Shown here one piece after another: positions 7,231-55,141 of a stretch of DNA of 64,000 nucleotides (position 1 is the stretch's first letter; every line of letters begins with the position of its first letter). The DNA is taken from assembly GCA_964016885.1 (NCBI GenBank), contig OZ024741.1:35898001-35962000 (forward strand). Direction: 5' to 3'. The stretch is from Eledone cirrhosa. Its lineage: Eukaryota. The notes beneath the pieces were generated by a model. That model saw only the letters and a program-made list of their open reading frames with translations. It did no database searches and was not told the DNA's origin. Both the position numbers and the translations under genes were made by a program.

Positions 7231-7282
<52 letters not shown>

Positions 7283-13987: not shown

Positions 13988-14027
<40 letters not shown>

Positions 14028-15735: not shown

Positions 15736-15790
<55 letters not shown>

Positions 15791-15799
<9 letters not shown>

Positions 15800-31540: not shown

Positions 31541-31545
<5 letters not shown>

Positions 31546-34500
31546 GGGTCTGCTAGATTCATTGAGGGTAAAAAACGATGTTATAAGCTTTTCTGGGTGG
31601 GAAACGACGATGGGCTGGGTGGAGTAGGAATCATGGTAGCAGAAAAGTGGGCAGATAAGATAATAGACGTAAATAGAGTGAACGACAGAATAATTAAAAT
31701 AAGACTTGTCCTCAATAGAACTACGGTGACAGTAATATCTGCGTACGCACCCCAATCCGGACTGCCCGGCACTATAAAAGACAGATTCTATGAGACACTG
31801 TTGCTAACTACCTCCCAAATATCTGACAGTGACTATATAATTATTGCAGGCGACCTAAATGGTCACGTTGGACAACATTGTGACGGCTACGACGAAATCC
31901 ATGGAGGCTATGGGTTTGGTACTAGAAATGAGGAAGGCTCCAGAATCCTGGAATACTGTGATGCAAATAACCTAACTATCTGTAACACTAACTTCAAAAA
32001 ACGTGACAATCACCTGATTACCTATAGATCCGGGGAACACACAAGCCAGGTAGATTATATCCTTACCAGAAGACGTGACAGAGTGTCTGTTGTAAACACT
32101 AAATCCCTCCCCCATGAAGAATGCACCTCCCAACATAGACTGATAATTAGCGACCTCATAGTCAGGACGAGACGTACCCGACAGCAGAAGAGGACTATCC
32201 TCAGGAGGAAAATATGGAAACTAAAGGACCCCACAGCCAGAAATAAATTTCAAAGCATATTACTTGATGCTTTCGACAGTAAGGAAGAGCATCTAGAATC
32301 GGACAATATAGAGGGACAGTGGAAATTTCTGAAAGCAAACCTGCTGTTGGCGACAGACGAGGTCTGTGGCTGGAGCAGGCCTGTAGGCAGGAGGAGAGTA
32401 ACATGGTGGTGGAACAATAGGGTGGAGGGGTCAATTAAGGCCAAAAAGCAGGCTTGGAAAGTATGGCGGGATGGGGGAAGTAGAGTAGACTATCAAGTGG
32501 CCAGGAGGGAAGCTAGGAGAGAAGTGTACTTAGCAAGAAGGGAAGCGGAGGAAAGAAAGTTCAAGCATGTTCTACAACGCGATGACCAAAAACGTGAGGT
32601 GTTCAGGATTGCCAGGCAATGCGTCAAGGAAAACCGTGATATTGTCGGGGAGAAGTGTGTACTTAACGATGATGGCATACTTGCCATCACCGACACTGAT
32701 AAGAAGGTAGCTTGGAAGTGTCACTATGAAAGGCTACTAAATGAGGAGAATAAATGGGAGAAAGACAGTCTCCCCCATATCGACCCGATAGAGGGACCAG
32801 CAGTGTTAGTCGAGGGGAGTATAATAAGTAAGGCAATCAAGGATATGAAGACTGGTAAGGCGGCTGGGCCTTCGGAAATAGTTGCTGAGATGCTGAAGGC
32901 ATCTGGCACGGTGGGACACACCATGGTCACCCGCATAGTTAACCAAGTCGTACAGAATGGGGTTGTTCCGAAGGACTGGCATAGCAGCATCATCGTTAAC
33001 TGTTATAAGGGTAAAGGAGACGCCCTAGATAGGAGTAACTATAGAGGCATTAAATTAATCGACCAGGTCATGAAGGTCACGGAAAAAGTAATAGCGCAAC
33101 TAATCAGAGAGAGAATTGATCTAGATGAAATGCAGTTCGGGTTTGTGTCAGGCAAAAGCACCACAGACGCTCTTTTCATAGTACGACAACTACAGGAGAA
33201 GTACCTAGCTAAAGGTAAACCCCTCTACTTAGCTTTTGTCGACCTGGAGAAAGCCTTCGACAGAGTCCCCCGCTCCATTATCTGGTGGGCTCTTAGAAAA
33301 CTAGGCGTTGACGAATGGCTTGTGAGGGCTATACAAGCCATGTATAAAGAAACAGTCAGCAAGGTTAGAATTAACAACGAATATAGTGAAGAGTTTAGCG
33401 TAAAAGTTGGCGTCCATCAGGGCTCTGTTCTCAGCCCCCTACTATTTATTATTGCCCTTCAGGCTATAACAGAGGAGTTCAAGACAGGCTGCCCATGGGA
33501 ACTCCTATACGCAGACGACCTGACACTCATAGCGGAATCAATGGCCGAGCTAGAGAAGAAATTCCAAACATGGAAGCACGGCCTAGAGTCAAAAGGACTT
33601 AAAATTAACCTGGCTAAGACCAAAGTTCTAGTTTGTAGGAAAGAAAACAAGGCGGCGGTCCCTTCTGGGAAATGGTCGTGCTCGGTATGTAGGAAAGGCG
33701 TAGGTAGAAACTCCATCTTATGTCCTAAATGCAAAGTATGGGTGCATAAAAGATGTAGTGGGATCACAGGTAAGCTAACTAAGAACATAGACTTTACATG
33801 TGGCCGATGTTCTGGTGCAATAAGTAGCAGCAAGTGCCCACAAAATACTAGCTCTTTCAATTGCGCAGAGGGTTCTATAGAAATAGTGGACAGCTTCCGT
33901 TACCTGGGCGATAAAATCAGCAGTGGGGGAGGGTGCTCTGAAAGTACTGTAGCTAGAGTCAGAACTGGTTGGAAAAAGTTCAGAGAGCTTATACCACTAT
34001 TAGCTGCTAAAGGGTTCTCCCTAAAAATGAAAGGCAGGTTGTACGATGCCTGCATACGAACAGCAATGTTGCATGGTAGTGAGACCTGGGCATTGTGTGC
34101 AGAGGATATACGCAGACTAGAGAGGAACGAAGCTTGCATGCTCCGCTGGATGTGTAACAGTAATATACGTGAACGGCAAAGCATAAACGAACTAAGGAAA
34201 AAATTAGAGATAAGAGGGATCAGATGTTGTTTACTCGAGAGAAGGCTGCGTTGGTATGGACACGTGATGCGCATGAAAGTCGATAGCTGTATTACAAAGT
34301 GCAGGGCAATAAAGATAGACGGTAGCCACGGAATAGGCAGACCTAGAAAAACATGGGATGAGCTGATAAACTCCAACCTCATACACTTACACCTCTCCAA
34401 GACAATGTCACTGGACCGTGACCTTTGGCGGTACTCAGTAACAGAGAAGACCCGCCTTGCCAGTAGGCATCTCTAACAAACTACACCCCGTCCCGCCACC

Positions 34501-35967: not shown

Positions 35968-35999
<32 letters not shown>

Positions 36000-36819
36000 G
36001 AGGTTATATTTAATTTGTTGGGATTCAACAAGCTTAATAAATGTTATAACTGATATAAAGCACTCAACAATTAGTGGAGTAAATACACAATATATTAATA
36101 AATGGAAACTATATTTATAAAACCATATTTATTTTATTTTATTATATATATATATATATATATAAACAATGAGTTATATGGTTTGTTGATTATTATTCAA
36201 CAAAGTTATTTTTATAATAGATTTGAAGCACTCTACAAATTTTATCTGGAGTATTATTAGTGGATTGGCAGTATCGGTAGAGGGTCGGACGCCATGCTTT
36301 GCAGCAAAGAGTTACGGCCCTTTATGGTCTGAGTTCAAATCCCACCGAGGTTAACTTTGCCTTTCATCCTTACGGGGTCGATAAAATAAAGTACCAGTAA
36401 TACACTGGGATAATTGCTGGCCTTGTGCCAAAAGTAGAAACAATTATTAATATTAACAATATTAATAAATGGAAAATATCATTTATAATACCATATTTAT
36501 TTTATTATACGTACTTTATTATACTTATACGTATACAAAGTATACAAAATATAATTATTTCTAATTTTGGCACAAAGCCAGCAATTACACAGAGCGTTAT
36601 TTGGTGTTAAGATATTGACATACCTTAGCGTAGACTTAATAGTATAAGCTCGCTATCGGCAGTGAGGAACAATTCCAATCACAAGTGATATAAGTTAACA
36701 AGGATATATTAAAACAGAAAAGGGCCGTTATTATAGACGCTAGAAAAATTGTGAAAAATAGCGTATTTATATTGATCGTGTGGCGGTGAATAAAGGGTGA
36801 AATATTTAGTGTAGAATTA

Positions 36820-38339: not shown

Positions 38340-38376
<37 letters not shown>

Positions 38377-38407
38377 AGATCAAAAGATGGTTAAAAGAGT
38401 TCCAAGT

Positions 38408-38476
38408 ATTTTATTATGCGCATTTCAAAAAGAAATATCATCATGTGATGATATCTGCGTTTTCATCAGATAAAAT
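38408..38476 (-). ncRNA. Type I hammerhead ribozyme motif
   Basis: attttat CTGATGA [stem II] GAAA tgcgca TA ataaaat; 7-bp stem I and palindromic stem III. Confidence 0.75.
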
Positions 38477-38930
38477 AGGGATACATGATATGAAGGTTAA
38501 AAAACACTTGTTGAATAGTGAAGTTTTAAATCATTGTAGAGTGCTACTTATCCGATATTTGCGTTGCTTTATTGTGCTACAATAAAACTCACCTACTACA
38601 TATATATATATACACACACGTATATATATATATAGGTGTGTGTATATATATATGTGTGTGTGTGTATGTATATATTAATAAAAGCTGTGAAGTTTCGTTT
38701 ACATGTATTTAGTTTTTTATTGTGTATCGACCTGTTACGCGCGTTTCACAGTATTTCACTGGATCACACACACACTATATATATATATATACATTCTCTA
38801 ATGAATTACGTTTATTACGTTTTCGCACTTTCACATAGATAGGATATAAATAAAATTTTCTATCAGGTTAATCACTACTTTGATTAAATCTTAACCATTT
38901 AACATCTCAGGGTATGTCATGTATCATTAT

Positions 38931-38983
38931 ATTATGTCTGATGAGAACGTACTGTTGTACATCCGAAATATGTATAATAAAAT
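38931..38983 (+). ncRNA. Type I hammerhead ribozyme motif
   Basis: attatgt CTGATGA gaac-gtac tgtt gtac-atcc GAAA tatgta TA ataaaat. Confidence 0.65.
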
Positions 38984-39121
38984 GTAATTGATCAAAAGAA
39001 CATCTATTTTATTAATACTTATATTTTAATATTAATAACTCCAGAAAATTATTTTCGTTGAGTGCTTCCAATCTACTGTAAAACTCATTCTTTGACATAA
39101 TCATTGAATATTGTTTAACAA

Positions 39122-39235
<114 letters not shown>

Positions 39236-39300: not shown

Positions 39301-39637
39301 TGTAGGAGGTGAGTTTTATTGTAGTACAATAAAGCAATGCAGATATCGGATAAGAAGCACTCTACAGTTTGTAGGACTGGAGTATGCATAATATAAGATC
39401 AAAAGATGGTTAAAGGAGTTCCATGTATTTTATTATGCGCATTTCAAAAACAAACATCATCATGCAATAATATTTGTGTTTTCATCAGATAAAACAGGAG
39501 AACATGATATGAAGGCTAAAAAACACTTGTGGATAGTGCAGTTTTAAATCAACATATGATATGTTGATTTAAATGATGTTTGTTTTTGAAATGCGCATAA
39601 TAAAATACATGGAACTCCTTTAACCATCTTTTGATCT

Positions 39638-39644
<7 letters not shown>
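39301..39644. mobile_element. Fold-back PLE-type insert: 72-bp arms, 88-nt tail
   Basis: 39389-39460 / 39573-39644 are inverted; hammerhead inside; (TA)n flanks; rearranged sister copy at 38371-38600. Confidence 0.75.
39428..39494 (-). ncRNA. Type I hammerhead ribozyme motif
   Basis: ttttat CTGATGA aaacac...tgttttt GAAA tgcgca TA ataaaa. Confidence 0.72.
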
Positions 39645-39717
<73 letters not shown>

Positions 39718-40089
39718 AAATTTCAGGTTATCAATAATGTAGTGATAATATATCGTTACGTTAGAGATGAACAGCGTACGTGCAGGTTTGCTCAACGAGT
39801 ATAAATTATATTCCGGAGAAATGTAGAAAGGATGAATATAAAATGAAAGTGCTTTTGTTAAAAAAGGAATTTATTAGGTATTGACATATGTTTCTGTAAC
39901 AGACCGAATACCTATGTATCGCTGCTTGCGTAATCATATAATGTTAGCAAGTATTCGATAGCAAATGTATAATCAGTTGTCACTTCTTCAGAGATTTTGG
40001 ATAAACTGGATAAAATCAGAAAAATTGAAGTATTTATATTAGTAAAAGAGGAAGGAACAGAGGGGATAGAATCTATAGAGGGGATAGAA

Positions 40090-40430
40090 TCTATCTTTGC
40101 GAACCCAGTAGCTATCATCGAATTTAACTATAGTTTTTCTCGCTTCCATAATAATTTTAATTTCAGCATCCGTAAGGTCGGAATTATCCTTAGCGAACGA
40201 AAGAGCTTCATGTAGAGTATCAGGTGAAATTGAGGAATAATATTCATCAATATCAAACTGAATAAATTTTGATTTTTTTCTTATCAGTAATGTTGTTAAA
40301 CCATCTTATTGCTTCATGAGTGTTACCCCATAGTTTAATCTCTACTTTAACCTTAACTTGGGGGATAATTCTGTCTAGTATATATTTGCTAATTTTACCT
40401 ATATCAGATTTAGAGGGGCATATAAGTCTA
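40090..40430 (-). pseudogene. Inverted N-terminal part of the same PLE RT
   Basis: Minus strand reads RLICPSKSDIGKISKYILD...FIQFDIDEYYSSIS...IIMEARKTIVKFDDSYWVRKDR, overlapping the plus-strand ORF start. Confidence 0.85.
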
Positions 40431-40438
40431 AAATTATT

Positions 40439-41717
40439 ATGGAAGCGAGAAAAACTATAGTTAAATTCGATGATAGCTACTGGGTTCGCAAAGATAGACC
40501 TTCTAATTTTGATATCACTATGGGTTCTAATGATTCGGCGGAAGTAACAGATCTTGTGGGAATTTATATCACCCACAGATTACAAGGAAAATTCAAGGAT
40601 CTCCACGGTGGAATTTACCGTGACGATGCGCTCCTATTAGTTAAGCATATGAATAACCAGAATTTAGAAAGGATGCGTAAAAATATCAGAAAACTTTTTA
40701 AAGAACTAGGATTAAATATTACATTTGAATATAACCTCAAAGAGGTCAATTTCCTTGATGTTACTTTCAATCTCAATACAGATACGATTAAACCGTTCCA
40801 TAAACTAAATGAGAACCTTAAATATGTAAATACGAGTTCTAACCATCCACTCTCTATAATTAAATCCATCCCTAGAAATGTTTCTCTTAGAATCTCCCGC
40901 CTATCGTCCAACCAACAAACCTTCAAAGAACATGCCGAGTATTATGATGATGCACTTAGGAAAGCCGGTCACCTAGATAATATAGAGTATATAGTCAATG
41001 ATCACCAAAACACCCAAAATAAATCACATCGGAGTAGAAATAGCACAGAATCACCACCATACATACACTACCGCAATAGACACAATAATAGTCGCACACC
41101 ACCAAACAGAAGGCGATGTAAGGAGTATATCTGGTACAACCCGGTCTATAACAAATCTATTAAAACCAATCTACCCTCAAAATTCTTTCGATTAGTTAGA
41201 AAACACTTTCCAACATCACATAAATATAATAAAATCTTAAACCCTAACACTATTCGACTTTCATATTCAACCGCCCCTAATATTGAACAACATATAAAAA
41301 AGCTTAACGCAAAACGGTTGTATAAACGCCTTCCAACACATAACAATACACGTAAAACATTAGCTATAACATCACAAAACAACAAACAACATCCTGTCCT
41401 ACATAAGCAACCTCATCAACCCATCCATGGCAATACAACAACGCAAAATTGTAATTGCAACTGTGTCCAACCAGGAATGTGTCCGTTGAACAATCAGTGT
41501 CTTGAACGCAACATCGTATACAAATGTACTATCGAATCGGATAGACAGAAGTGGTACTATGTGGGATCTACAGCCACCTCCTTCAAATCACGCCTTTATA
41601 GACATCGTTATTCGATAAAACATGAAAACCAGCGTTATGTAACAACACTCGCAGACAAGGCTTGGCAGCTGCGTGAAAATAACCAACAATTTCACCTAAA
41701 ATGGGATATAATAGCGT

Positions 41718-41749
<32 letters not shown>

Positions 41750-41910
41750 CATATTTCAATGGACAGGAATTTTGTAAATTATGTAATGTAGAATTATTTT
41801 GTATTATGAAATCCAAAAACATTTTATTAAATAACAGAATAGAGCGATCGTTATACTGTAACCATCGCTTAAAATCTACATTTTCATATTATAAATACTA
41901 CCAGGATTGA
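40439..41910 (+). pseudogene. PLE RT + GIY-YIG endonuclease, frameshifted at a C30 run
   Basis: FDITMGSNDSAE, GIYRDDAL, VNFLDV, IWYNP, CNC-x5-CPL-x3-C, IVY...YVG...FKSR. The C-terminus (CKLCNVE...LLN...CNH) continues in another frame after 41721-41750. Confidence 0.88.
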
Positions 41911-42384
41911 ACGCCTGTCTCTATCCCCGTTTGATTGTCAAAATAGATATGAACATTCTTTATTAGTCTTAATTCTATCAACTCTTCTATTATTTACCTT
42001 TTTAATACAAACTGCTATAGATAAAATGAGATTTCTGATTTCTTGATTCAATTCCCTAGTGCATATACCAGCTGGATACTAGCATTGATGTTATTTAGTA
42101 GCAATCGAAATCTCCCCCTTCCCCTATTGACACTTTATAATTAATACTACTGCACCAAATGACCAGCCCTGTCCACTGTCCAGTTGGTCAAGTAGAGATT
42201 AAAATTGGCACTCCCAAAATTCTTATTTAGATTTACTCATGGTATTCTCATTAAAAACCCATTATATACTTGTTTAGCAGTAAATTATTTTACCATCTGT
42301 CATATTCTATCCCCTCTGTTCCTTCCTCTTTTACTAATATAAATACTTCAATTTTTCTGATTTTATCCAGTTTATCCAAAATCT

Positions 42385-42500
42385 CTGAAGAAGTGACAAC
42401 TGATTATACATTTGCTATCGAATACTTGCTAACATTATATGATTACGCAAGCAGCGATACATAGGTATTCGGTCTGTTACAGAAACATATGTCAATACCT
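42385..42500 (+). ncRNA. Hammerhead-like motif in the PLE pseudo-LTR (mirror copy 39876-39991, -)
   Basis: CTGAAGA a gtgaca...tgttac a GAAA catatg TC; long stem II insert; stem I does not pair convincingly. Confidence 0.45.
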
Positions 42501-42903
42501 AATAAATTCCTTTTTTAACAAAAGCACTTTCATTTTATATTCATCCTTTCTATATATATATGTATATATATGTGTGTGTGTACATATATATATATGTATA
42601 TATATGTGTGTGTGTATATATGTATATATATATATATGTGTGTATATAATATGTGAAGGCGAGACACGTGAAGATTTGTGTCTGTACAAAAGATAATGAA
42701 GTATTTATGCGGCTGTGTCCATGAGTTACGATAGGGGGGGGGGTAGATACATTAATTAGATTAGTGAGAGAGAGAGTGTGATGAGATGTGAAAAGTTTAG
42801 AAGTATCAAGAAAAAGTAAGGAGCTCATATAGGGAGGTAGATCTAAGGAAACATCTATATTGGAACTGATATATATATATATATAACACTTGAAATAGTA
42901 GGA

Positions 42904-42905
<2 letters not shown>

Positions 42906-42996
<91 letters not shown>
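42906..42996. repeat. (TA)n microsatellite (one of dozens in the window)
   Basis: Direct observation. Confidence 0.98.
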
Positions 42997-42999
<3 letters not shown>

Positions 43000-43240
43000 C
43001 GTTTCTGAATTTGTTTAGCAAGATTCTTTATCTGAAAACGTGTGTTGAAACCGATATTGTTATACTTTGGGAGGGTCATGTTGCCAATGGAACCAACCAA
43101 CCAACTGGAAATTTATAAATTCTTAAATTTATAAATTTAATTTATAATAAATTGGAGTGAAATAACTGGTGCGTGTGTTTCTTATTGGCAACATGACCCT
43201 CCCAAAGTATAACAATATATATATATATATAGATAGATAT

Positions 43241-43293
<53 letters not shown>

Positions 43294-43294
<1 letters not shown>

Positions 43295-46200
43295 TTCTTT
43301 ATTTACCATAAAGGCATAAAAAGAAGGGACAAATACAAAGGGGGAGTTTACATATAATCGAGTAAAAAGGGTGTAACATGAAAACAATCGAAAATAACCT
43401 CAAAAAGGAGGGGACGTGATGGGGGTTGCACACACCCCCGAAAAAGTGTGCAATCCTTTGCCCGGGGAGCACATGGAGAAGGTGCTCCCCTCTCCTTTAC
43501 TTCTTTACCTACAGGATGGTATACAGAGAAGGCCCATTTACACGAGCCATTCTCGCCACTATCACCCACCTTTCATAAAACTGCCTGTGGCCAAGCACCT
43601 CTCTCTCCATTCTTATCCTTCTTCCGAAGTGATATCGGAAGAAGTAGACCAGACTATGGCCAGAGAGGAAGTTGCCTGACCTCAGACCTTTCAATCGTGT
43701 CCACCAAACAACCTCTTTCAACATGGCTATTACGCACAGAAAAACCGCCTTTGCTTCCTTTGTGAAGAGGGGGGGGGGGTTGATTGTCATCACGGACTCG
43801 GCGGTCAATTTAATCGGCGCCACCCGCGACAGCAGTCGTTCGGCGTAGCCCCACAGATCAGCCACGCCCGGACATTGCACCAATGCGTGCGCAACGGTTT
43901 CTTCGTGACGCACGCATCTAGGGCAAATCTTTTTTGAGGGATCCCTGCCCGGGCGCCCGTGTCTGTAGAGCCTCTCTCGAACGGGTAGAGCCCCCCGGTA
44001 GCACTGCCAGGCCAGTGACTTCTGGAAGTTGTCCATTGGTCCTGGGCCGAAAGTCCTACCGAACAGGCTGGCCAGTTCGTCTTCTTCCATGTCCAGCGAC
44101 TCTCCAAGGGTGTCATTGCCCCTGCTAGCCACCAGCCCTCTATAGAATGATGAGGTGGATTCTCCACCGATGGCCTGGCCCGCTTGCCAGAGAGCCCTGA
44201 GCGTCTGAGCACACTCAGTGTGCCAGTCTCCCAGTTTTCCGGATCTTTGCTTGACCCAGGACTGTAGCTCGGTGAGCGAGACGAGTCTCGGAAAGGCTCG
44301 TTTCACGAACGGAGCCCACACCGGTTGACCAGTGAGGAATACCTGTAGGTGCCGTAGCCTTAATGCGTGCCTACGCATCATCAACCACGGCATCCCCAGC
44401 CCTCCTTTCGAAGGTTGTTGGCAGCAGATGGATCTTCTCACCATAGGAGGGCGCTTCTTCCAAAGAAATTGGAAGAGCATGCGTTCCATGGTGGTGAGTG
44501 TTTCCTTAGGGCAAGGCACGACAGTCAGGCGGTAGTAAGTGACGGACGCTATGTAAATGTTCGCCACCTCCGCCCGGCCTTTTAGGGACAGCTTACACTT
44601 GGCCCATTTCTGGGTTAGTGCAAACACCTTGTTCGTAACCTCGTTCCAGTTCTTTTCCACCTGGAGGTCCGGTCCAAACCAGACCCCAAGCAACTTTACC
44701 GGGCCCTCCGTCCAGTGTCCGACGACACCGTCAGGAGGCATCGGTCTGCCTCTCCACGTTCCGAGTTGCAGCCCGATGGATTTTTCCCGGTTCAGTTTCG
44801 CTCCTGACAACCTTTCGTACTCCTCCAGTAAGGTACCGATCGCCTCGATCTCCGAGTCGGTCGATAACATTACTGTTACGTCATCGGCGTAGGCCGACAC
44901 CGCTTTGCTCAATCCTGGTTCCAGGGGGATACCCTGCAACAACTCCAACTTCCTCAGTAAAGGCTCGAGAGTCAATACGTACAGAAGGGAGGAGAGAGGG
45001 CACCCCTGTCGAATGGATCGTGTGATTTCGAACGGCTTCGAAAGGTAGCCGTTCACCTTGATCCTAGAACAGATGTGGTTGCTATGTAAGGCAGTTATCC
45101 AGCCTCTGAAAACAGGACCGAACCCAGCCGCCGCTAGCACCGCATCCAGGTAACCATGGTCGACCCTATCGAAGGCCTTAGACTGATCCAAGTTGATCAG
45201 GGCCCCACCGAAGCCGGGTTTGTTGCCAACCCTCTCTATGATGTATCGCATGAGGTGGAGGTTATCGTGAATGGACCTGGATGGGATAGCACATGTCTGC
45301 GCATCTCCCACCAGGCCACCCACGACAAGCGCCAACCTCTTTGCTAACACCTTGGCCAAAATCTTTAACTCTGTGTTTAGCAGGGTTATGGGCCGAAAAT
45401 TATTTATACTATCCCCCTTGTTCTCGTCCTTCCTCACCAGCGTGACTACGCCCTTGGCTACAGAACAAGGAATTCTCCCGTTCTGCTGCCAATTGCAGTA
45501 GACCGCTTCGAGGAGTTCGGAGAAGAAGACCGGCATTGCTAAATAAAGTTCGTAAGGTATACCATCGAGACCTGGAGATTTGCGTCTGCTGCATTGGCTC
45601 AGCGCATCTCCGATCTCATCAGCCGAGATTGGTCCCTCGCAGGACTCTGCCTCTTCGCTCGAGAGACGCGGCAGGCCGTCGAGGTATGGACCGAAATCCA
45701 CGCCCCCGCCCGGACCCTCGCCTCCCCCGAACAATCGGGCAAAGTGCCTTTGAAAGGCCTCGCACATCTGCTTAGGCTCCCGGATCACCCGTCCATCTTC
45801 GTCTTGCAACGACCGGATGGTGGATCGATTTCCACTCTTAGCTTCTGTCACGCGGGCCCAGCCAACGGCTTTGGCCCCCTCATTACCTAGAGCACGTATT
45901 TTACTTCGAATGACGCAGCCTTCGTGCTTTGCATCGAAAAACTGGTTCAAGGCCGTCCTCGATGCCAGCACTCTGGCCACATCTTCGCTCTTGATTGCCT
46001 CTTCTAATTTACCTGTTAATTCTTTCTCGTTTCTATTCCTATCGGCAGCTAACATCTTGCTATAACTTATTGATTCTGTTCTAATCTCTCTTTTGAGAGA
46101 TGCCCTCCATCGGTTGTTGACGATTGCACCCGTCAACCTCTCCTTAACTAATCTGCTAATCCGGTTTCTGTAAGTCTCTTTTGCCGGTAAAGACAAATTA

Positions 46201-46340
46201 AGTTTCCAGTAACCGGGACCCTGTCTATGTGTTTTCTCGAGATTGACCACGCAGGTCACTAATTTGTGATCCGTGTAGCCAACCGTGCGCATTTCTGGAC
46301 AGCTTAATATGTCCCTATCCTTACTTCTAACTAAGAATCT
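43294..46340 (-). mobile_element. Tx1/L1-clade LINE, 5'-truncated, inserted in (GATA)n
   Basis: One 927-aa ORF; the 3' end ggtaaataaagaa runs into (ATCT)n; (TAGA)n on both flanks (43229-43293, 46345-46378). Confidence 0.92.
43509..46292 (-). CDS. Tx1/L1 ORF2 (end of APE, RT, C-terminal CCHC knuckle)
   Basis: TDHK, GYWKLN, KSPGLDG, FRPITLLN, DQSKAFDRV, IRQGCPLS, AYADD, GGLG and CPRC-x4-ETVAH-x4-C. Confidence 0.93.
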   Translation of the reverse strand: MRTVGYTDHKLVTCVVNLEKTHRQGPGYWKLNLSLPAKETYRNRISRLVKERLTGAIVNNRWRASLKREIRTESISYSKMLAADRNRNEKELTGKLEEAIKSEDVARVLASRTALNQFFDAKHEGCVIRSKIRALGNEGAKAVGWARVTEAKSGNRSTIRSLQDEDGRVIREPKQMCEAFQRHFARLFGGGEGPGGGVDFGPYLDGLPRLSSEEAESCEGPISADEIGDALSQCSRRKSPGLDGIPYELYLAMPVFFSELLEAVYCNWQQNGRIPCSVAKGVVTLVRKDENKGDSINNFRPITLLNTELKILAKVLAKRLALVVGGLVGDAQTCAIPSRSIHDNLHLMRYIIERVGNKPGFGGALINLDQSKAFDRVDHGYLDAVLAAAGFGPVFRGWITALHSNHICSRIKVNGYLSKPFEITRSIRQGCPLSSLLYVLTLEPLLRKLELLQGIPLEPGLSKAVSAYADDVTVMLSTDSEIEAIGTLLEEYERLSGAKLNREKSIGLQLGTWRGRPMPPDGVVGHWTEGPVKLLGVWFGPDLQVEKNWNEVTNKVFALTQKWAKCKLSLKGRAEVANIYIASVTYYRLTVVPCPKETLTTMERMLFQFLWKKRPPMVRRSICCQQPSKGGLGMPWLMMRRHALRLRHLQVFLTGQPVWAPFVKRAFPRLVSLTELQSWVKQRSGKLGDWHTECAQTLRALWQAGQAIGGESTSSFYRGLVASRGNDTLGESLDMEEDELASLFGRTFGPGPMDNFQKSLAWQCYRGALPVRERLYRHGRPGRDPSKKICPRCVRHEETVAHALVQCPGVADLWGYAERLLSRVAPIKLTAESVMTINPPPLFTKEAKAVFLCVIAMLKEVVWWTRLKGLRSGNFLSGHSLVYFFRYHFGRRIRMEREVLGHRQFYERWVIVARMARVNGPSLYTIL

Positions 46341-46343
46341 TAT

Positions 46344-46378
<35 letters not shown>

Positions 46379-46529
46379 TGTGTGTGTGTGTGTGTGTGTA
46401 GAAGTTCTATTTAAATTGTTGGGATACAACAAGCAAATATTTTTATAACTGATATAAAGCACTCAACAAATTATTGGAGTAAAAATACGATATATTAACA
46501 AATGGAAACTACATTTATAAAACTATATT

Positions 46530-46594
46530 TATTTCATTATACATATTTCAAGGACACCAAGTTAAATTATGGTGTGCTTTCATCAGATAAAATA
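46530..46594 (-). ncRNA. Type I hammerhead ribozyme motif (mirror copy in the other palindrome arm)
   Basis: Reverse complement of 46724-46788. Confidence 0.75.
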
Positions 46595-46723
46595 TAATAT
46601 AGAGCAGTTTTATAAATAAATATTGACATACCCTTAAAGAATGTGACCATTTCTGTTGGAAACAGAAATGGTCGCATTCTTTAAGGGTATGTCAATATTT
46701 ATTTATAAAACTGCTCTATATTA

Positions 46724-46788
46724 TATTTTATCTGATGAAAGCACACCATAATTTAACTTGGTGTCCTTGAAATATGTATAATGAAATA
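46724..46788 (+). ncRNA. Type I hammerhead ribozyme motif
   Basis: tattttat CTGATGA aag-c-acacca...tggtgt-c-ctt GAAA tatgta TA atgaaata. Confidence 0.75.
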
Positions 46789-46890
46789 AATATGGTTTTA
46801 TAAATGTAGTTTCCATTTGTTAATATATCGTATATATATATATATATATATCATAACACTGTATATTTTTAAAAATAGCATATATTTTCA

Positions 46891-46995
46891 CTAGCTCTGA
46901 CAGTTGGCAGGTGAACAGTGAACTGTACTGATGAAGGGTAATACTCAGAAACATTAGTGTCTGCAGTTCTGTTTACATGCCAACACAAGAGCCAG
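46891..46995 (+). ncRNA. Type I hammerhead ribozyme with long stem I
   Basis: gaactgta CTGATGA a gggt aat actc a GAAA cat ta gtg TC tgcagttc; stem I extends through gtgaaca/tgtttac, gttggca/tgccaac and ctagctct/agagccag. Confidence 0.78.
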
Positions 46996-47143
46996 AATGA
47001 GGGGCTCATTCTACTGACATGGCTTTAAAAATGAGGCTTGTTTGCATAATTGCAAACAAATCGAATATTATTATTAATATTCAAAAAACTCAGCTTACAT
47101 TTATTGTATTCAGTCATGAAGAGCGAAAAAATGTTTTTTTCTA

Positions 47144-47171
<28 letters not shown>

Positions 47172-47174
<3 letters not shown>

Positions 47175-47690
47175 AGGTATTAGGATTGGTGCTCTGTAAT
47201 AGCGATGTATACATGAATGTATGTAGAGTATATTTGGCAATATACTGTATGTTTAATTAAAAACATTTTGAAGACCATACGCTATTGTTTTAAAGTAGTG
47301 ACTATGTCACTTACTTCTTCTCGTCAAAAGAAGAGAAGCTGACAGTCTGTTTCACGTTGTTGGCGATCATCAGAGCCACGCACTCCCTGCTTCCACCGAA
47401 AATTATAGAAGCTGGATTCTTATAGAATTCCAGTAATAATTGTTTCTACTTTAGGCACAAGGCCAGCAATTACCCAGGGCATTACTGGTACTTTATTTTA
47501 TCGACCCCTAGGAGCTGATTATACAGAGCGATTGCCGGTCCACCAAAAATTAGGTATTAGGGTTGGTGCTCTGTAATAGCGATGTATACATGAATGTATG
47601 TAGAGTATATTTTGCAATATACCGTATGTTTAATTAAAAACATTTTGAAGACCATACGCTATCAGTTTTAAAGTAGTGACTATGTCACTT
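47172..47690 (-). repeat. About 141-bp direct repeat flanking a hammerhead motif (partial-tandem pLTR-like)
   Basis: 47172-47312 and 47549-47690 are nearly identical. Confidence 0.75.
47337..47377 (-). ncRNA. Minimal hammerhead motif
   Basis: ggct CTGATGA t cg ccaacaa cg t GAAA cagactg TC agct; stems are short. Confidence 0.55.
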
Positions 47691-47837
47691 CTTTTCGGCG
47701 AAAGATATATATATATATATACATATAGTAATAATAATAAATTTGAAGACTAAAATCCAAAGAGGGCTCGATAAGGATAAATATATATAAAATATATAAG
47801 AACCCTAGAGCAAATATTTATTAAAACAACAGATTAA

Positions 47838-47885
47838 AGTTTAAGCAAAGAATCGCTGCTTTCACCCTTAACGGGATCTTCAGAA
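47838..47885 (-). ncRNA. Hammerhead motif, stem I clipped by a local inversion
   Basis: tt CTGAAGA t ccc gttaa ggg t GAAA gca...tgc TT aaact; inverted arms at 47841-47869 / 47884-47912. Confidence 0.55.
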
Positions 47886-48054
47886 GGGTGAAAGCAGCGA
47901 TTCTTTGCTTAAATCTGTTATTTTAATAAATATATATATAAATATTGAAGAAGTAAAAGTCCCCGTCTAACCCACGTTAGCGTGGAAGAATGGATGTAAA
48001 ACGGTAATGATGATGATGATGATATATATCATTTATATATATATATATATATAT

Positions 48055-51000
48055 CAGCAATAACACTAACCATGTTAGGGCTGCGCACGGTAGTGGGGTG
48101 GCTGGAGCGGCCATGTGCGAGAACCCCCCGACCGTCATCAAGCAATCGCACAACAACAACTGCATAAACAGCAATAACACTAACCATGTTAGGGCTGCGC
48201 ACGGTAGTGGGGTGGCTAGTGAGGCCATGTGCGTCATCAAGCAATCGCACAACAGAAAAAAGAACAAGAATATGAAGACGTCGCATCTCAGAGTTGCCAC
48301 ACTTAATGTTGGCACTCTAACAGGTAGATCTGATGAGATAGTGGAGATGCTGGAGAGAAGGCATATGGATGTGTGCTGCGTGCAAGAGGTGAGATGGAGA
48401 GATGCCTCTGCAAGACTAATCGCAGACAAACATCTTAATTATAAGCTTTTCTGGGTGGGTAATGATGATGGGTTAGGTGGGATAGGCATAGTACTGGCTG
48501 AGAGATGGATCGATAAAACAATAGAGGTAGTTAGAGTTAGTAATAGAATAATTAAGCTTAGATTAGTTGTAGGCAAGAGACTACTGACAATCATCTCTGC
48601 CTATGCTCCCCAGGCAGGCCTAGGTAAAGAAGAGAAAGACTGCTTTTACAAACAACTTTTACAAACAGCCTCAATGACAGAAGACAGAGACATCATTATG
48701 CTAGCAGGGGACTTCAATGGTCATGTTGGACAGGATGGATACACTGGGGTACATGGTGGGCACGGTTACGGCTCAAGAAATGAAGAAGGAGTGAGGCTTC
48801 TTGAATTGTGTGATGCAAGTGCACTAACCATTTCCAACACTAACTTCCAGAAACCTACCAACCACATAATAACCTACAAATCAGCGAGACAGACAGATGG
48901 TGTCAAATACTAAAGCATAACCCAGGGAAGAATGTACCCCCACAACATAGGTCAGTCGTTAGTGACATCTCAGTAAGCAAGAGACAGAATGAGACATACA
49001 GGAAGGTGTGGTAAAGAAAGGTCTGGAAGCTAAAAGACCTTTCACTAAAATATAAATTTAGGAAAGCCCTTCAAGATGTGTATGACGAAAAAGAAGACGA
49101 TTTAGAGTTGTATGACATAGATGATAACTGGAATTTCTTACGTGACAACTTACTGCAGGCTACTGAAGAAACTTGTGGCTGGGGCAGAGCTTCAACCAGC
49201 CAGAGAGTGACCTGGTGGTGGAACAGCACGGTAGATAGGACCATTAGAGACAAAAGACTAGCGTGGAAGGCTTGGAAAAAGGGTGGGAGTAGAGAAGGAT
49301 ATACAGCCGCTAAGAGAGAAGCTAGACGTCAGGTGTACTTAGTATGCAGGGAGGCTGAGAGTAAGAGGTTTGCCAATGTTCTGTGACGGGAAGATCAGAG
49401 ATGTGAGTGTGTCAGTGCAAATCAGGATGTTGCTGGAGATAAGTGTGTCCGGAATGATACCGGTGTACTTAGTGTCACGAATGATCAAAAAAAGGAGGCC
49501 TGGAAATGTCATTATGAGAGACTGATGAATATGGAGAACGAATGGGAGAGAGAGAAATTACCCCCAGTAGACCCGACAGAGGGACCAGCTATTGAAATTG
49601 ACTAATATAGGGTACAAGAGGCAATTAAGGAAATGAAGAATGGTAAGGCTGCTGGACCGTCGGAGATAGTTGTTGAGATGCTGAAGGCATCAGGAGAAGT
49701 AGGCACTAAACTGGTTGCACGCATCATCAATCAAGCTATATAAGGTGGTGTCATACCCAAAGACTGGTGCAGCAGTATTCTCATAAATTGCTACAAGGGC
49801 AAAGGGGATGCTCTGGAGAGGAGCAATTATAGGGGCATAAAGCTGATGGATCAGGTTATGAAAGTGGCAGAAAGGATTTTAGCACAACTAATTAGAGAAA
49901 GGGTCAAATTAGATGAGATCTAGTTTGGTTTTGTGCCTGGGAAAAGTACAACAGATGCCCTCTTCTTAGTGAGACAACTACAAGAGAGGTTCTTAGAGAA
50001 GAATAAGCCACTATACTTAGCTTTTGTTGACCTAGAGAAGGCCTTTGATAGGGTACCCCAATCTGTCATCTGGTGGTCCCTAAGGAAACTAGGTGTATAG
50101 GAATGGCTTGAGGACAGTGCAAGCTATGTACAGAGGTGTTGTCAGTAAAGTGAGAGTAGGAATGGAGTTTAGTGAGGAATTCCAGATACAAGTAGGTGTA
50201 CATCAGGGTTCGGTCCTCAGCCCGCTCTTGTTCATTATAGTCCTCCAAGCCATAACAAAGGAGTTTAAGACTGGCTTCCCATGTGAACTTCTCTATGCTG
50301 ATGATCTGGTTCTTATAGCAGAATCAGTAGAGGAACTAGAGAATAAATTCTGGCTATGGAAACAGCAGTTGGAATCAAGAAGACTGAGAGTGAACATAGC
50401 TAAAACAAAAGTGTTGATGAGTAGAAAAGAGGACAAAACTCTGATTCCGTCAGGGAAATGGCCATGTTCGATATGCAGAAAAGGAACTGGCATAAATTCC
50501 ATAAAATTTACGCAATGCAGATCTTGGGTACACAAGAGATGTAGTGGGATAGCAGGTAAACTAACAGGAAGGGAAAAATACGTATGCAGTAGATGTACAG
50601 GGAAAGTTGGCAGTAGTAATCGCAGTGATAGACACATTTTTCCAATGCAGGTGGGTTCTATAGAAGTGGTTGATAGCTTCCGGTACCTAGGTGATCAGAT
50701 TAGCATGGGAGGGGGTGTTCCGAAGCCATAGTATCTATAATAAGGACGGATTGGAAGACGTTTAGGGAGCTGCTTCCTCTGTTGACAAAGAAAGGTTTCT
50801 CTCTGCGTACGAAAGGGCGGTTATATGATGCCTGTGTGAGATTCGCGATGCTGCATGATAGTGAGACGGCTGGAGAGAAATGAAGCAAGTATGCTCCGTT
50901 GGATGTGCAATGTCAATGTGCATGAACGACCAAGCATAGATGAGTTGAGAAAGCAACTGGGTATAAGAGGGATAAGTTGTAGTGTGCATGAGAGAAGAAT

Positions 51001-51246
51001 GAGATGGTATGGACAAGTGATGCGCATGGAGGATCACCGATGGGTAACGAAGTGCCAAGAAATCCCAGTAGAAGGAAGACCACGAAAAACATTGGTGGGG
51101 GTGGTGAGAGCTGACCTCAGATCGCTGAAACTCACGGAGGAGATGACGAAGGACCGTGACAAGTGGAGAAATGCTGTGCTGAATAGGACCCGTCCTACCC
51201 TTGTAAGCAGAGAAAAGGGGACGTAAAATGATGATGATGATGATGA
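48055..51246 (+). mobile_element. RTE-clade LINE, second subfamily, near full length but inactivated
   Basis: ORF pieces 48098-48913 (VATLNVGTL, CVQEVRW, GDFNGH), 49078-49386, 50093-50731 (LYADD) and 50855-51226, broken by stops and frameshifts; (GAT)n tail. Confidence 0.92.
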
Positions 51247-51333
51247 TCTTCCTACTATTTAGGCGTTAAACTAATATATTTCTTCCATGTACTGTGTCAT
51301 TTGTTTTGTTATTTTTGTTATTTATGTTTTACC

Positions 51334-51408
<75 letters not shown>

Positions 51409-51479
51409 ATCATCGTTTTACGTCCATTTTTCCACGCTAGCATGAGTTAGACAAGTTATCCTAAAGAAAAGCTTAGGTA

Positions 51480-52510
51480 TAATGAAGCCATCATTATCAG
51501 GTTATTCTTTAAATGCATTCAAAGCTGTAGATTGAGCTTTTGCAATAAAGTGGTGCTGTGTAATTTTACAGAATGATTCACACATGATATCAATGAAATC
51601 TGCTGCAGTAGCTTCAAGTGATACAAGCGTTGTTCTATCATTGTGCACCCATTGTTTATATTTAATTATGTCACCTTCATGAAACTCTTGACTATCTAAC
51701 TGACTATTGAGGTACTCTTGTAATGCCTCTTTCCCAGAACACCGTTCACATGCATGCAATATGCTGTTTTATATCCATGCTTTATGACTTAAGTTGATCC
51801 TGTACAAAGCGCTGATAACTGAATTTCTAAAAATTCACAACTCTGAAAAGAAGCTCAGCAACAAAACCAAATTTCTGGCACATCATCTTCAGAAGTATAA
51901 GAATGCATGGTAAAAATTTAAAAATGATAGTGAATTGTCCACATGGTCAACTAAGGGCTTCAAATGGGCATTTTTTGAAATCCCACATATCTCAAAAGCT
52001 TATTCTGACACTCCCATAATAGTAACATGGTTACTGCTCAGAAATCGTCTACTATATGCTAAGTAACAGGAAAAAAATTATCGCTGCTTTATCTAGTGTA
52101 CCTATTGAGATAGAAATACTTAAAAGAAGCATACATTTGCTGTACGTTTAATTCTTGGCAATTTTCAGAGGCCTCTAGATGGAAAGATATACAAAATACA
52201 CTTGATTTGATAAGATATTTGAACTCTACAGAAGAAGTTAGCCCCAAACCCATGATTTCAAAGTTATGCTTACCTTATTAGAGGAGAAATGGCTGTCTTA
52301 AGTTGGTCTGAGAGACTCATTCGGAAAAAAATGTATAATCAATTAATATTTTAAAGGCCTACAATTTCAAAACTATCAAAGATATTGACCTAATACTTGA
52401 TATTTTCCCATCATATAGGTACAGGAGCTAGTATGAATTTTTTCAGGGGGATCTGAGGGGGTGACCTGGAAAATGTTTCTGAAACTGGGTGATTTGATAT
52501 GGAATAACCC
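51480..52510 (-). mobile_element. DNA transposon remnant, possibly Sola2-like
   Basis: ORF 51502-51759 (CxxC...YKQW...DR...HHFIAKAQ) resembles DDD transposases from memory; terminus GGGTTATTCC abuts (TA)n at 52510. Confidence 0.5.
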
Positions 52511-52871
52511 ATATATATATATGTGTACATTCCTGAGCTGTGTTGGTGGGAGGGGGTAACCACAGTTAAGAAAGATACTGAGTACATTGGTAGATTATAG
52601 GCATCTTTATTATATCTTTCTGATGACTCATATGAACCATACAAAACAGTTCTAGTGATGTAGATATATATTTCTAGATAGATATAAAGGTATTTTGTAT
52701 TTTAGTGGAAATTATAACAAGACGATTTCCCTGGACGATTAGTTCTGTCTCCTGGAGCTAGACCAAAATCTATAGTTAGTAATTGATGATCGATTGCTTA
52801 GATCAATTTTCAATCCAGTTCTAGAGGCTATGAAACGGTGCCGTAAGGAATATAATAACTTTTTCACCTTA

Positions 52872-53076
52872 AAGTATGTACTGTTTCCTAAATATTATAT
52901 GCTTTTTATATATGTACAAAATACTATGTGTTTCTCTGATGATATATGGCTATATGCATACATTTTTGAATTTTGAATTTTGAATTATTGAAGCTCTGGA
53001 CAAATGTCCATTGAACTTTTTCTACTGAGAAGCACATTCATCATACATATTATATATGCTATGATACTTTAGATTA

Positions 53077-53147
<71 letters not shown>

Positions 53148-53595
53148 AAAGAAAGGAAAAGAATGACTTCACGTGTAGTGTTAAAAAAATTTATGATTTA
53201 ATATTATAATATTATGAGTTGGTAGAAGTCATTCTTTTCCTTTTTTTCAAATATATATATATATATAAATAAATACTAATCTAAAGTATCATAGCATATA
53301 TAATATGTATGATGAATGTGCTTCTCAGTAGAAAAAGCTCAATGGACGTTTGTCCAGAGCTTCAATAATTCAAAATTCAAAAATATATGCATATAGCCAT
53401 ATATCATCAGAGAAACACATAGTATTTTATACATATATAAAAAGCATATAATATTTAAGAAACAGTACATACTTACCAACTCATAATATTATAATATTAT
53501 AACATTAAATCATAAAATGTTTTAACACTACACGTGAAGTCATTCTTTTTTTTTTTTTCAAATATACCTAACTGTACCAAGGATCTCACACATTT

Positions 53596-53600
<5 letters not shown>
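52872..53600. repeat. Two interleaved inverted repeats around (TA)n, with a 34-nt tail
   Basis: 52872-53080 / 53273-53474 and 53145-53224 / 53474-53566. Confidence 0.8.
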
Positions 53601-53636
<36 letters not shown>

Positions 53637-53639
<3 letters not shown>

Positions 53640-54309
53640 TATTTTCCGTTGTGTTGTAATATAAATATTACACACAGTAGATTATCAGCTCACGTAGAGT
53701 TTGCTCGACGGTTCCAGTTGTAGTTCCAAAAGTAATCCGGAGAAAAATAGAAAGATTTGAATGGATACAGTTTAGTTGAAAGGAATTTATTGACACGTGT
53801 TTCTATAACAGTTACATAACCTAAAACAGCTATCTACAAATTTCTGCAAATTGTGTAATCTTGAGATTTATTACATAATCACACACAAGAAGAAACTGCT
53901 GAATAACAGAATTGAACGAACATTATTCTGCCGTCACAGAACTAAAACCCTTTTTTCCCACTACAAGCCGAATATTACATAAAAGAGGGACATCCCCCAA
54001 CTATATAAACCTTAATCTAGTTAGAAAAATATAAAAACAATCTCTTCTCAACATATATTAATAACCTTAAATTACCATACTAATAATGAAAAGATATGCT
54101 GATGAGAATAGGTACAAATATGCGATAATGAATGTGTCTAAAAACGTCCATAAGTATGTATATATATGTGAAAATGTATATAAATAAGTAAATATATATA
54201 TATGTTTGATGTGTATAGTTAGATGTAAGTGTATTCATGTATTAAAGTGCTTATATGTATATATATATGTATATGTGTGTATATGTATGTTTGTGTATGT
54301 ATGTATATG

Positions 54310-54366
<57 letters not shown>

Positions 54367-55103
54367 GTATATATGTGTGTATATATGTGTATGTATATAT
54401 GTGTATATGGATGTGTATGTATGTGTATGTGTGTACACATGGACTAGAGTATGTATGTATATATGTGTGTGTCTATACGTGTGTATATAAAGATAAGTTG
54501 AGTATGAAAATGTATACACATGAGCGCGTATGTATGTACATAAATACATGTGTGTATATATATGTGTATGCATGTGTATATATATGTAAGTATGAATATG
54601 TGAATTGTGTGTATATGTATTTTGTAGAGGTGTGCAAATATATTTGTGTGTGAATGCGTGGGTGAAAGGATACGTACACTTGAAAGAAAAATTTAAGTCT
54701 GAATGTTAATTAAGTGCAAACACAAAACCAACCACGCATATCTTCACTATCTCTAATCCTTCTATAGATTTAGAAAAATAACCAATAATATATTCTATAA
54801 AAAATGTCAAAACAACAGATGGGAATCTAATTACTCACTGCCACCAAGAATTCTCACTGCTATCGAAAAACCACTCCTTCAACTATTCTTCTAACAACTT
54901 CACCCCTCCCTCCTAATATTCTCTATAAAAACTAAATAGGTCCTCAGTAATATTATTCTGATGAAATGACAGTAAATAATAACATTGAAATATTGAATGT
55001 CTGCATAACTAAAAGTTTGTAGATAGCTGTTTTAGGTTATGTAACTGTTATAGAAACACGTGTCAATAAATTCCTTTCAACTAAACTGTATCCATTCAAA
55101 TCT

Positions 55104-55108
<5 letters not shown>
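53637..55108. mobile_element. Non-coding relative of the Naiad-type PLE with 93-bp inverted ends
   Basis: Inverted repeat 53748-53840 / 55016-55108 and a 111-nt tail. It shares gtttgctc.acg, tccggagaaa, aaggaatttatt and the ctttcta|(TA)n end with 39715-42552. Confidence 0.75.
54953..55069 (+). ncRNA. Type I hammerhead motif with long stem II insert
   Basis: ttatt CTGATGA a atgacag...ctgttat a GAAA cacgtg TC aataa. Confidence 0.7.

Positions 55109-55141
<33 letters not shown>

Follow-up and report, generated by a model that had tools for sequence, protein, structure and literature searches.

Two questions are open for Penelope-like elements (PLEs), the sister group of telomerase: how an internal start is chosen, and what causes the one-sided tail on their inverted inserts. 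Both are raised by a 64,000-nt stretch of the Eledone cirrhosa genome (GCA_964016885.1, contig OZ024741.1, 35,898,001-35,962,000, forward strand), hereafter the window. Judging from their sequence features, four inserts in it are (TA)n-embedded, inverted, 5'-truncated PLEs of the Hydra clade.

Inserts in the window

A first, sequence-only reading had described one arm of each insert as bearing an unpaired tail and the other as running into (TA)n just short of a CTC/GAG motif. This geometry was borne out in all four cases, with tail bounds within 1 nt (Table 1). The inverted arms lie at 39388/39645 in family A, 39821-40072/42304-42555 in B, 46485/46833 in C and 53747-53843/55013-55109 in D. The tail-less arms lead into (TA)n, and their last matched base is 6, 6, 6 and 5 nt ahead of the motif. 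Independent sequencing reads also show these (TA)n junctions; in this check the most prominent read ends were disregarded, being library cut sites.

The motif that had been placed at 39038-39065 is real (39039-39062), and the tail there meets (TA)n at about 39127. An arm at 14370, said to stop just before actccg, fared differently: it does not reach (TA)n, and no 3' half goes with the four letters that follow its partner. Part of a neighbouring repeat, fused to the 5' end of a different element, makes up the 76-nt repeat at 14370; the true hairpin of that element lies at 13602-13638. The fold-back of family L is absent from the sequence-only reading. The bare motif is frequent by chance: the window has 43 structure-class matches, of which just 10 have a microsatellite 80-112 nt downstream.

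Table 1. Elements and inserts in the window, in window coordinates.
Feature	Position	Strand	Remarks
Family E solo tailed copy	13527-13912	-	hairpin 1 at 13602-13638
Two solo tailed copies	35991-36259	-	hairpins 36063-36079, 36231-36251
Second family A insert	38343-38601	.	minus site-1 arm and plus tail-only site-2 arm (38535-38601)
Family F solo tailed copy	38938-39130	+	hammerhead core; hairpin 1 at 39039-39062; tail stops 6 nt short of hairpin-2 position
Family A tail, between start sites 1 and 2	39301-39388	-	hairpin 1 at 39360-39382
Family A inverted arms	39389-39645	.	tail-less arm meets (TA)n at 39645
Hammerhead core in family A arms	39442-39488	-	by pattern
Family B tail	39716-39823	-	hairpin 1 at 39791-39818
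Family B insert	39821-42555	.	short inverted arm 39821-40072; long plus-strand arm to site 1 (42552-42555)
Hydra-clade RT + GIY-YIG frame, 5'-truncated	40379-41791	+	frameshift at C run close to end
Family C tail	46399-46484	-	hairpin 1 at 46462-46479
Family C palindrome, near-perfect	46485-46833	.	hammerhead cores 46586 (-), 46732 (+); tail-less arm end 46833
Family L fold-back	47725-47933	-	hairpin 1 at 47767-47810, U-A closing pair; partner arm stops 4 nt before hairpin
Family D tail	53637-53746	-	hairpin 1 at 53704-53742
Family D insert	53747-55109	.	inverted arm 53747-53843, GIY-YIG C-terminal remnant, 3' UTR, arm to site 1 (55109)

Assignment to the Hydra clade

The assignment rests on motifs and features of the frames. 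A single 760-aa frame ends in a GIY-YIG domain, as read by eye; it has the RWK motif, DKT in place of DKG, a CxCX5C linker, no CCHH, and CxxC and CxH near its end (the last three by eye). Insertions are in (TA)n. Hammerhead cores were found by pattern in families A, C, D and F, family B having no compact core, and the unit lengths of 3.12 and 3.02 kb stand at the edge of the range given for the clade, 'generally under 3 kb'. These elements share with the EN+ PLEs of the Hydra clade, as described in Craig et al. 2021 (PMC8557442), the C-terminal GIY-YIG, RWK, DKT, CxCX5C, (TA)n targets, both tandem and inverted inserts and, by pattern, hammerhead cores, the clade having a canonical hammerhead in its pLTR; RWK and DKT for DKG are given there as features of that clade.

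Searches of the protein against Pfam and PDB sequences returned no family, and GIY-YIG gave no Pfam match. The best matches of the predicted structure are telomerase reverse transcriptases (Z 17.9, rmsd 3.5, 285 aligned). One protein homologue is labelled Hydra vulgaris. A homodimer prediction for residues 1-480, made without an alignment, scored 0.00 and speaks neither for nor against a dimer.

Twin hairpins between putative ribozyme and start codon

The hairpin consists of a 3-bp CTC/GAG stem, a 2-nt bulge, a closing pair and a variable upper stem. The stem proposed initially is real but not a plain one: it has the bulge and a covarying closing pair. It does mark an end, as supposed, but not the second site only: hairpin copies are present at both ends. 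Each element carries two, 68-144 nt apart in the host families, between the putative ribozyme and the start codon, and in the source elements hairpin 2 lies just past the tail end in every family checked.

In family B, where the twin hairpins were seen without selection for them, a 3.1-kb unit contains only two hairpin matches, 108 nt apart. The twin arrangement was predicted from this family and then found in families C, D and A (45/46, 100/100 listed and 95/100 listed cases at one spacing, respectively), the copies of family A being located by pattern matching. The 3' half is intact in 10/10, 8/8 and 9/12 loci of these series. Twin hairpins also occur in seven further families. A search with the two-hairpin pattern gave 890 forward matches, versus 43 with a reversed control. 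In other pattern counts, those on the reverse strand were set aside because overlapping matches inflate them.

The core letters are nearly invariant, and recognition may thus be largely sequence-based. A number of hairpins are weak: folded alone, 2/29 give no structure, and others adopt a different fold. A model built from 16 equal-length hairpins of distant relatives matched hairpin 2 in 9/9 host references (E 4e-5 to 0.86) and hairpin 1 weakly (2/10 window copies, E 6-8). Rfam returned miRNA-type chance matches alone among the rows listed, with no hammerhead in the 150 rows listed. Apparent first hairpins at four loci (L251, L254, L257 and L259) have unpaired closing bases and were dropped as junction or chance matches; the true hairpin of L259 is found 60 nt upstream of the dropped match, and the ends are in register with it.

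Both ends lie in register with a hairpin

The sequence-only reading had asked whether endpoints scatter across many copies. They do not: in loci fetched by DNA queries, most of them with tail-bearing queries, 231/237 microsatellite-abutting ends lie at most 16 nt upstream of a hairpin. Ends without an abutting microsatellite (49/328) were left unclassed. Tail-less and tailed ends alike are mostly 4-9 nt upstream (-4 to -9 in 320/363, all loci), and 19 ends at -1 in families A and E are alignment overrun, which stricter trimming moves to -6. All 16 candidates of family D were scored; 10 stop at query base 97 and 6 at 206-207. Unlike the defined site proposed in the sequence-only reading, the exact end base is variable, shifting to whichever T or TA is closest in a range of about 4-11 nt.

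Across 10 families, 98 of 99 head-to-head pairs combine one site-1 end with one site-2 end, and the sole exception carries duplicated host flank. In these 98 pairs the extension is one-sided, on one inverted arm. Of 30 family B loci picked on their tail-less end, the partner end could be seen in 18; it was at site 2 in 17, within the tail in 1 and at site 1 in none. Solo copies, which may end at either site, are frequent (11/30).

Distant relatives and families without a frame

A metagenome scan with a single protein query found no relatives; with an alignment query, distant ones were recovered. As to whether the motif is conserved beyond the first examples, a structure-only search found the hairpin in 38/52 of these distant loci, mostly twinned, against 0.9 in shuffles; 8/52 had no hairpin and 14/52 only one. 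The closing pair is kept in 70/75 distant hairpins (C-G 47, U-A 19) against 52.6 in shuffles, and the next two pairs in 50/75 and 49/75 against 30, while the third upper pair and the second flank pair exceed shuffles hardly or not at all; because the families are related, the shuffle p values are optimistic. By this sequence comparison, pairs covary, the closing pair among them, and compensatory pairs occur. The hairpins are 52-83 nt apart, 11/16 informative 3' ends fall 2-8 nt ahead of a hairpin, and in most loci hairpin 2 is about 33-70 nt upstream of the start codon. Inspection by eye shows the hairpin in consensi of Craig et al. 2021 (PMC8557442); the same inspection of the published consensus Hydra-1_Obim turned up none.

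Three families, N1, N2 and N3, have no Hydra frame within 700 nt and keep both hairpins and the same ends. N1 and N2 form tandem units of about 480-520 bp. The hammerhead core heptamer is present, by pattern, in N2 and N3, and none was found in N1.

Proposed priming at two starts on one RNA

To these positional data the arms of 29 family B pairs add a record of copying. The site-1 arm reaches further in 12 and the site-2 arm in 15; since either arm may be longer, both were probably copied from RNA. The two arms of an insert share a haplotype, divergence being 0.66% within inserts versus 1.95% between inserts. Arms that exceed one unit imply that the template was tandem or circular. Simple arm junctions overlap by 2-22 nt in 15/21 cases.

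Our preferred reading, to which we give a probability of roughly 0.65, is that each hairpin binds one reverse transcriptase and that both cut ends of the (TA)n are primed on the same RNA, one per site. Binding is suggested by the position and conservation of the hairpins, and the RNA strand would be the one recognised. Each hairpin would set a window about 4-11 nt upstream, within which pairing of 1-3 nt between the (TA)n primer and U or UA would select the start base. Synthesis of the two cDNAs would then stop, microhomology would join them head to head, and the tail would be the stretch lying between the two starts. By analogy with the dimer predicted for PAc, discussed below, the protein may work as a dimer.

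A more specific version, which we put somewhat short of even odds, has a reverse transcriptase dimer docking on the twin-hairpin module (~100-170 nt) of one, possibly circular, RNA and making two first strands at once, one per end of the (TA)n break. The module would be portable and sufficient for the mobilisation of any RNA, as the families without a frame suggest, and the hairpin would be a telomerase-like element that positions the enzyme, conserved across animal phyla.

The hairpins could also be RNA start signals without a dimer on one RNA: a single enzyme might act two times in succession, or one donor might supply two transcripts. Positional and covariation data fit this equally, and the many solo copies, with an end at one site or the other, speak for it. 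One dominant donor would also give the haplotype sharing between arms, from which one RNA molecule and two transcripts of one donor are indistinguishable. Free choice of site on two molecules predicts same-site pairs, however, and these amount to 0/18 in the site-1-selected series and 1/99 overall; we consider this alternative unlikely.

More improbable still is that a single cDNA folds back and copies itself, and that GIY-YIG nicking of the hairpin, as DNA, trims the second arm at site 1. Self-priming has been proposed for rotifer PLEs (PMC3846280), and PMC11167929 reports that plasmid DNA must contain the tail for the D. virilis endonuclease. Perfect palindromes, equally compatible with fold-back, exist in 2/29 family B pairs and at 46485-46833 in the window. 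Yet a copy cannot outrun its template, and the tail-less arm is the longer in 12/29 pairs; nor could a copy carry a tail absent from its template, and three site-2 arms are tail only, with nothing in common with the partner arm. Hairpin 2 is never within the terminal copy and therefore acted before or during copying. Junction bases track T/TA matches to the target, and on the sense strand G-U exceeds A-C at the variable pairs (12 versus 4 over three positions), a weak difference. Of priming and nicking, both offered at the outset, the genomic record favours the former, on RNA.

Least probable is that the hairpins steer RNA processing or translation, through RNA 3' ends at two sites or ribosome entry on ribozyme-cut or circular RNA, which has no cap, the genomic ends following indirectly: in most distant loci hairpin 2 does lie a short way upstream of the start codon, but families without a frame keep both hairpins and the same ends, and ends move with target microhomology, as a fixed RNA end would not. 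PAc, moreover, starts internally on a longer RNA (PMC11167929).

Relation to known systems

The inverted arms and tail layout of PLEs are already known; of the twin hairpins we found no account in the literature searched. In L1 twin priming, two DNA ends prime on one RNA and the inversion is joined by microhomology. There the arms have no overlap and the second start is opportunistic, whereas both starts described here would be programmed and one sequence is copied into both arms.

According to PMC3846280 and PMC8557442, PLEs with inverted pLTRs likewise have one tailed and one tail-less arm joined head to head, and these papers explain the tail by endonuclease resolution or the inversion by self-priming. 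The tail in those accounts is 30-40 bp, against 68-144 nt between hairpins here, where both borders carry a repeated structured signal; the likeness to the Penelope tail drawn in the sequence-only reading was right, the tail being longer. For the Hydra clade, the available part of Craig et al. 2021 (PMC8557442) describes no twin hairpin, two-site rule or tail length.

In PAc (Poseidon, Anolis), two internal starts bound the tail in vitro (Frangieh et al. 2024, PMC11167929). As proposed here, there are two internal starts; both strands are cut and extended, and a dimer is predicted. Initiation in PAc takes place in the ORF, inside an AC-rich stem loop, whereas the starts proposed here lie upstream of two copies of one hairpin in the 5' UTR. 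Both PAc strands used both starts alike in vitro (PMC11167929), in contrast to the strict one-of-each seen here in the genomic footprint. Animal non-LTR retrozymes (PMC7229834; bioRxiv 10.64898/2026.07.22.740005) are ORF-less tandem units for which mobilisation by PLEs has been proposed; families N1-N3 add a candidate cis signal for it.

For animal retrozymes the twin hairpins provide a candidate cis signal, and they offer a boundary rule for annotating Hydra PLEs in genomes. A repeated, covarying RNA signal in register with both ends makes the choice of internal start and the cause of the one-sided tail open to experiment, with an assay that exists for another clade. Starts set by hairpins, if true, would account for the long-puzzling asymmetric ends of these elements.

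Results

Inserts of the window

The four inserts of the window, which lies in a host genome of 3.0 Gb, are inverted pairs embedded in (TA)n. Inverted arms of which only one bears a tail are an established signature of Penelope-like elements (PLEs) according to PMC3846280 and PMC8557442. The RWK, DKT and CxCX5C motifs, which PMC8557442 gives as defining the Hydra clade of PLEs, were found in one frame and in full-length relatives elsewhere in the genome. The best structural matches to the predicted reverse transcriptase (RT) structure (pLDDT 87) are telomerase RTs.

The sequence-only reading had proposed that one arm of each insert carries a tail and that the other stops just short of a CTC/GAG motif. 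Tails and motif were indeed found at its coordinates, with the tail-less arms stopping 5-6 nt short of the motif; further members of the hairpin family had been overlooked (Table). The arm at 14370, offered as another example, is instead a 5' junction with a neighbouring repeat, lacking (TA)n and the 3' half of the motif.

Table. Features of the window, in window coordinates
Position	Feature	Observation
13638	Overlooked hairpin-family member	
36079	Overlooked hairpin-family member	
36251	Overlooked hairpin-family member	
38343-38601	Overlooked hairpin-family member	
47810	Overlooked hairpin-family member	
53359	Overlooked hairpin-family member	
53338-53359	Hairpin	Hairpin of the member at 53359; U-A closing pair, perfect 4-bp upper stem
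52872-53636	Local inverted duplication	Contains another tailed copy
40379-41791	Frame with Hydra-clade motifs	
46380-46399	(CA)n run	
42387-42490	Apparent hammerhead, family B	Very long stem II, 80-90 nt insert; stem I unpaired
54958-55075	Apparent hammerhead, family D	Very long stem II, 80-90 nt insert
14026-14633	Dispersed repeat	Weak hairpin-2-like match at 14075-14090 (E 0.33); hammerhead-like core at 14264
6650-7355	Multi-copy (TA)n fold-back without this hairpin class	Probably another PLE clade
15740-16198	Multi-copy (TA)n fold-back without this hairpin class	Probably another PLE clade
43054-43218	Multi-copy (TA)n fold-back without this hairpin class	Probably another PLE clade
31543-34476	Long LINE-type RT frame	977 aa
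43509-46406	Long LINE-type RT frame	965 aa
61489-63948	Long LINE-type RT frame	819 aa

Two of the three LINE-type frames are inverted copies, 95% identical. Stem I of the apparent family B hammerhead is unpaired although B is a young family with many near-identical copies.

Two hairpins per element

Where copies of family B extend beyond the tail, another instance of the motif follows after 5 nt. A 3.1-kb tandem unit of this family contains exactly two instances, separated by 108 nt, and the start codon lies 42 nt downstream of the second. A second copy was predicted for families C, D and A, with patterns demanding its first four letters; a single spacing was found in 45/46 matches (C) and, among the matches listed, in 100/100 (D) and 95/100 (A), and the 3' half was present in 10/10, 8/8 and 9/12 loci checked, respectively. 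The two-motif search gave 890 forward matches, versus 43 for a reversed control. The pair also occurs in more families, including three without a Hydra frame within 700 nt. At L080 5601, 60-70 reads per run join the family B tail to different upstream sequence, that is, another family with the same module.

Three ORF-less families (those of L252, L269 and L259, with more than 1,700 first-look candidates each) retain both hairpins and the end rule. Tandem units measure about 523 bp in N1 and 480 bp in N2, and hairpin 1 of both has an A-U closing pair. These families are candidate Hydra-dependent retrozymes.

Conservation of the hairpin

Of 29 hairpins from the host, 27 are closed by C-G and 2 by A-U. 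Pairing is present at the outer flank in 22 (16.1 in shuffles) and at the first upper position in 20 (13.3 in shuffles); the second upper pair shows no excess over shuffles, and 2 of the 29 form no fold alone. A 64-protein alignment used as query retrieved 78 metagenome loci at 32-41% identity, and the structure search was limited to the 52 with a frame start and upstream DNA. Searching by structure only, the same hairpin ranked first, in 38 loci versus 0.9 in shuffles. When short loops were permitted, two hairpins were found in 26 loci, one in 14, three or more in 4 and none in 8, the spacing being 52-83 nt. The closing pair is kept in 70 of 75 distant hairpins (C-G 47, U-A 19) versus 52.6 in shuffles, and the next two pairs in 50 and 49 versus about 30; for the third (33 versus 26.4) the excess is not clear. 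In an equal-length subset, two-sided changes number 6 versus 1.8. Relatedness among the sequences renders all p values from shuffles optimistic.

Among the 30 repeat ends listed for the distant loci, 11 are contig ends and 3 read through. Of the remaining 16, 11 precede a hairpin by 2-8 nt; 6 run into (TA)n, and for 4 of these the position is -5 to -8. By eye, among the six published Hydra consensi, sea cucumber Hydra-1_Ajap has both hairpins at its start and a 3' end that keeps the register, a single hairpin stands near the 3' end of Hydra-2_Ajap and of coral Hydra-2_Amil, the copepod consensus has a looser variant, Hydra-1_Amil ends too early to reach the hairpin, and none was recognised in Hydra-1_Obim.

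Register of the ends

From the loci that DNA queries retrieved, we scored 328 distinct ends. Microsatellite-abutting ends lie within 16 nt before hairpin 1 (site 1; 88) or hairpin 2 (site 2; 143), with 6 elsewhere, site 2 being favoured in the B, C and D sample because those queries contained the whole tail; queries for N1, N2, N3 and G ended short of it. The remainder comprises 49 ends without abutting microsatellite, 37 read-throughs and 5 at a locus edge. Across all loci, pattern-selected ones included, 320/363 ends lie at -4 to -9 relative to the hairpin. All 16 candidates of family D were scored; their ends fall at one base (10) or at the tail end (6).

Junction positions spread in elements without TA at -7/-6. 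Counted by eye in the rows listed, 19 B2 ends span positions -5 to -15, 11 of them (one ambiguous) falling at -8, and of 26 family A ends 16 are at -8, 7 at -6, 2 at -11 and 1 is unclear. In family L, 25/30 partner arms end at -4. For one B copy, other sequencing runs contain (TA)n loose ends at site 1 (at least 93 reads in one run and at least 5 contigs) and at site 2 (at least 11 contigs, and one from another organism).

At tailed ends of families C and G, rarely at site 1, (CA)n runs occur (also L001, L004, L376, L382), and the template has CA near site 2. Such runs may stem from copying that is repeated at initiation, as telomerase does, or from slippage at a later time.

Pairing of ends

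Head-to-head pairs join one site-1 and one site-2 end in 98 of 99 cases, in 10 families; the exception has a duplicated host flank. Because most loci had been selected on the tail, we additionally chose 30 B loci by their end without a tail. The partner end, visible in 18, lies at site 2 in 17, within the tail in 1 and at site 1 in none; 11 loci have no partner and 1 was unscored. Arms diverge by 0.66% within inserts versus 1.95% between them, and 15/21 simple junctions overlap by 2-22 nt. Certain arms extend through more than one unit, for which the template must be tandem or circular.

The 5' stop points of both arms are often near each other (L092, L179, L195, L235, L242), as if both copying events ended together. 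Metagenome contigs L421, L423, L428 and L450 repeat their first bases exactly (55 nt), which would fit unit-length elements in tandem arrays or in assembly circles.

Discussion

The most likely reading, to which as a whole we assign a probability of about 0.65, is that two RT subunits would each hold one hairpin of a single RNA. The endonuclease would cut both strands within (TA)n; each DNA end would pair by 1-3 nt directly upstream of its hairpin and be extended; both cDNAs would then stop and anneal head to head. Tail length would equal the inter-hairpin distance. Where the ends lie, how they pair, the covariation and the independent templating can be read in the sequences or follow from them; RNA binding by the RT, the single template and the dimer are what we infer.

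Priming that is sequential, or on two RNAs, is an unlikely variant. Less probable still is fold-back copying with a DNA nick. Of 29 B pairs, 12 have the farther-reaching terminal segment in the site-1 arm, 15 have it in the site-2 arm and 2 show no difference; 3 site-2 arms consist of tail only. Since a fold-back copy can neither outgrow its template nor acquire a tail, both arms were probably copied from RNA. That the hairpins serve RNA processing or translation is the least probable explanation.

In PAc, a Poseidon-clade PLE of Anolis, RT starts at two internal sites bounding the tail, in a stem loop that is rich in AC, according to PMC11167929. We found no description of a twin hairpin in PLEs in the literature searched, which lay outside subscription journals and Repbase notes. 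The element type and insert layout are already known; the apparent start signal, conserved across hosts and twice repeated, appears new to the literature. With this signal, a direct test of how the PLE tail arises becomes possible.
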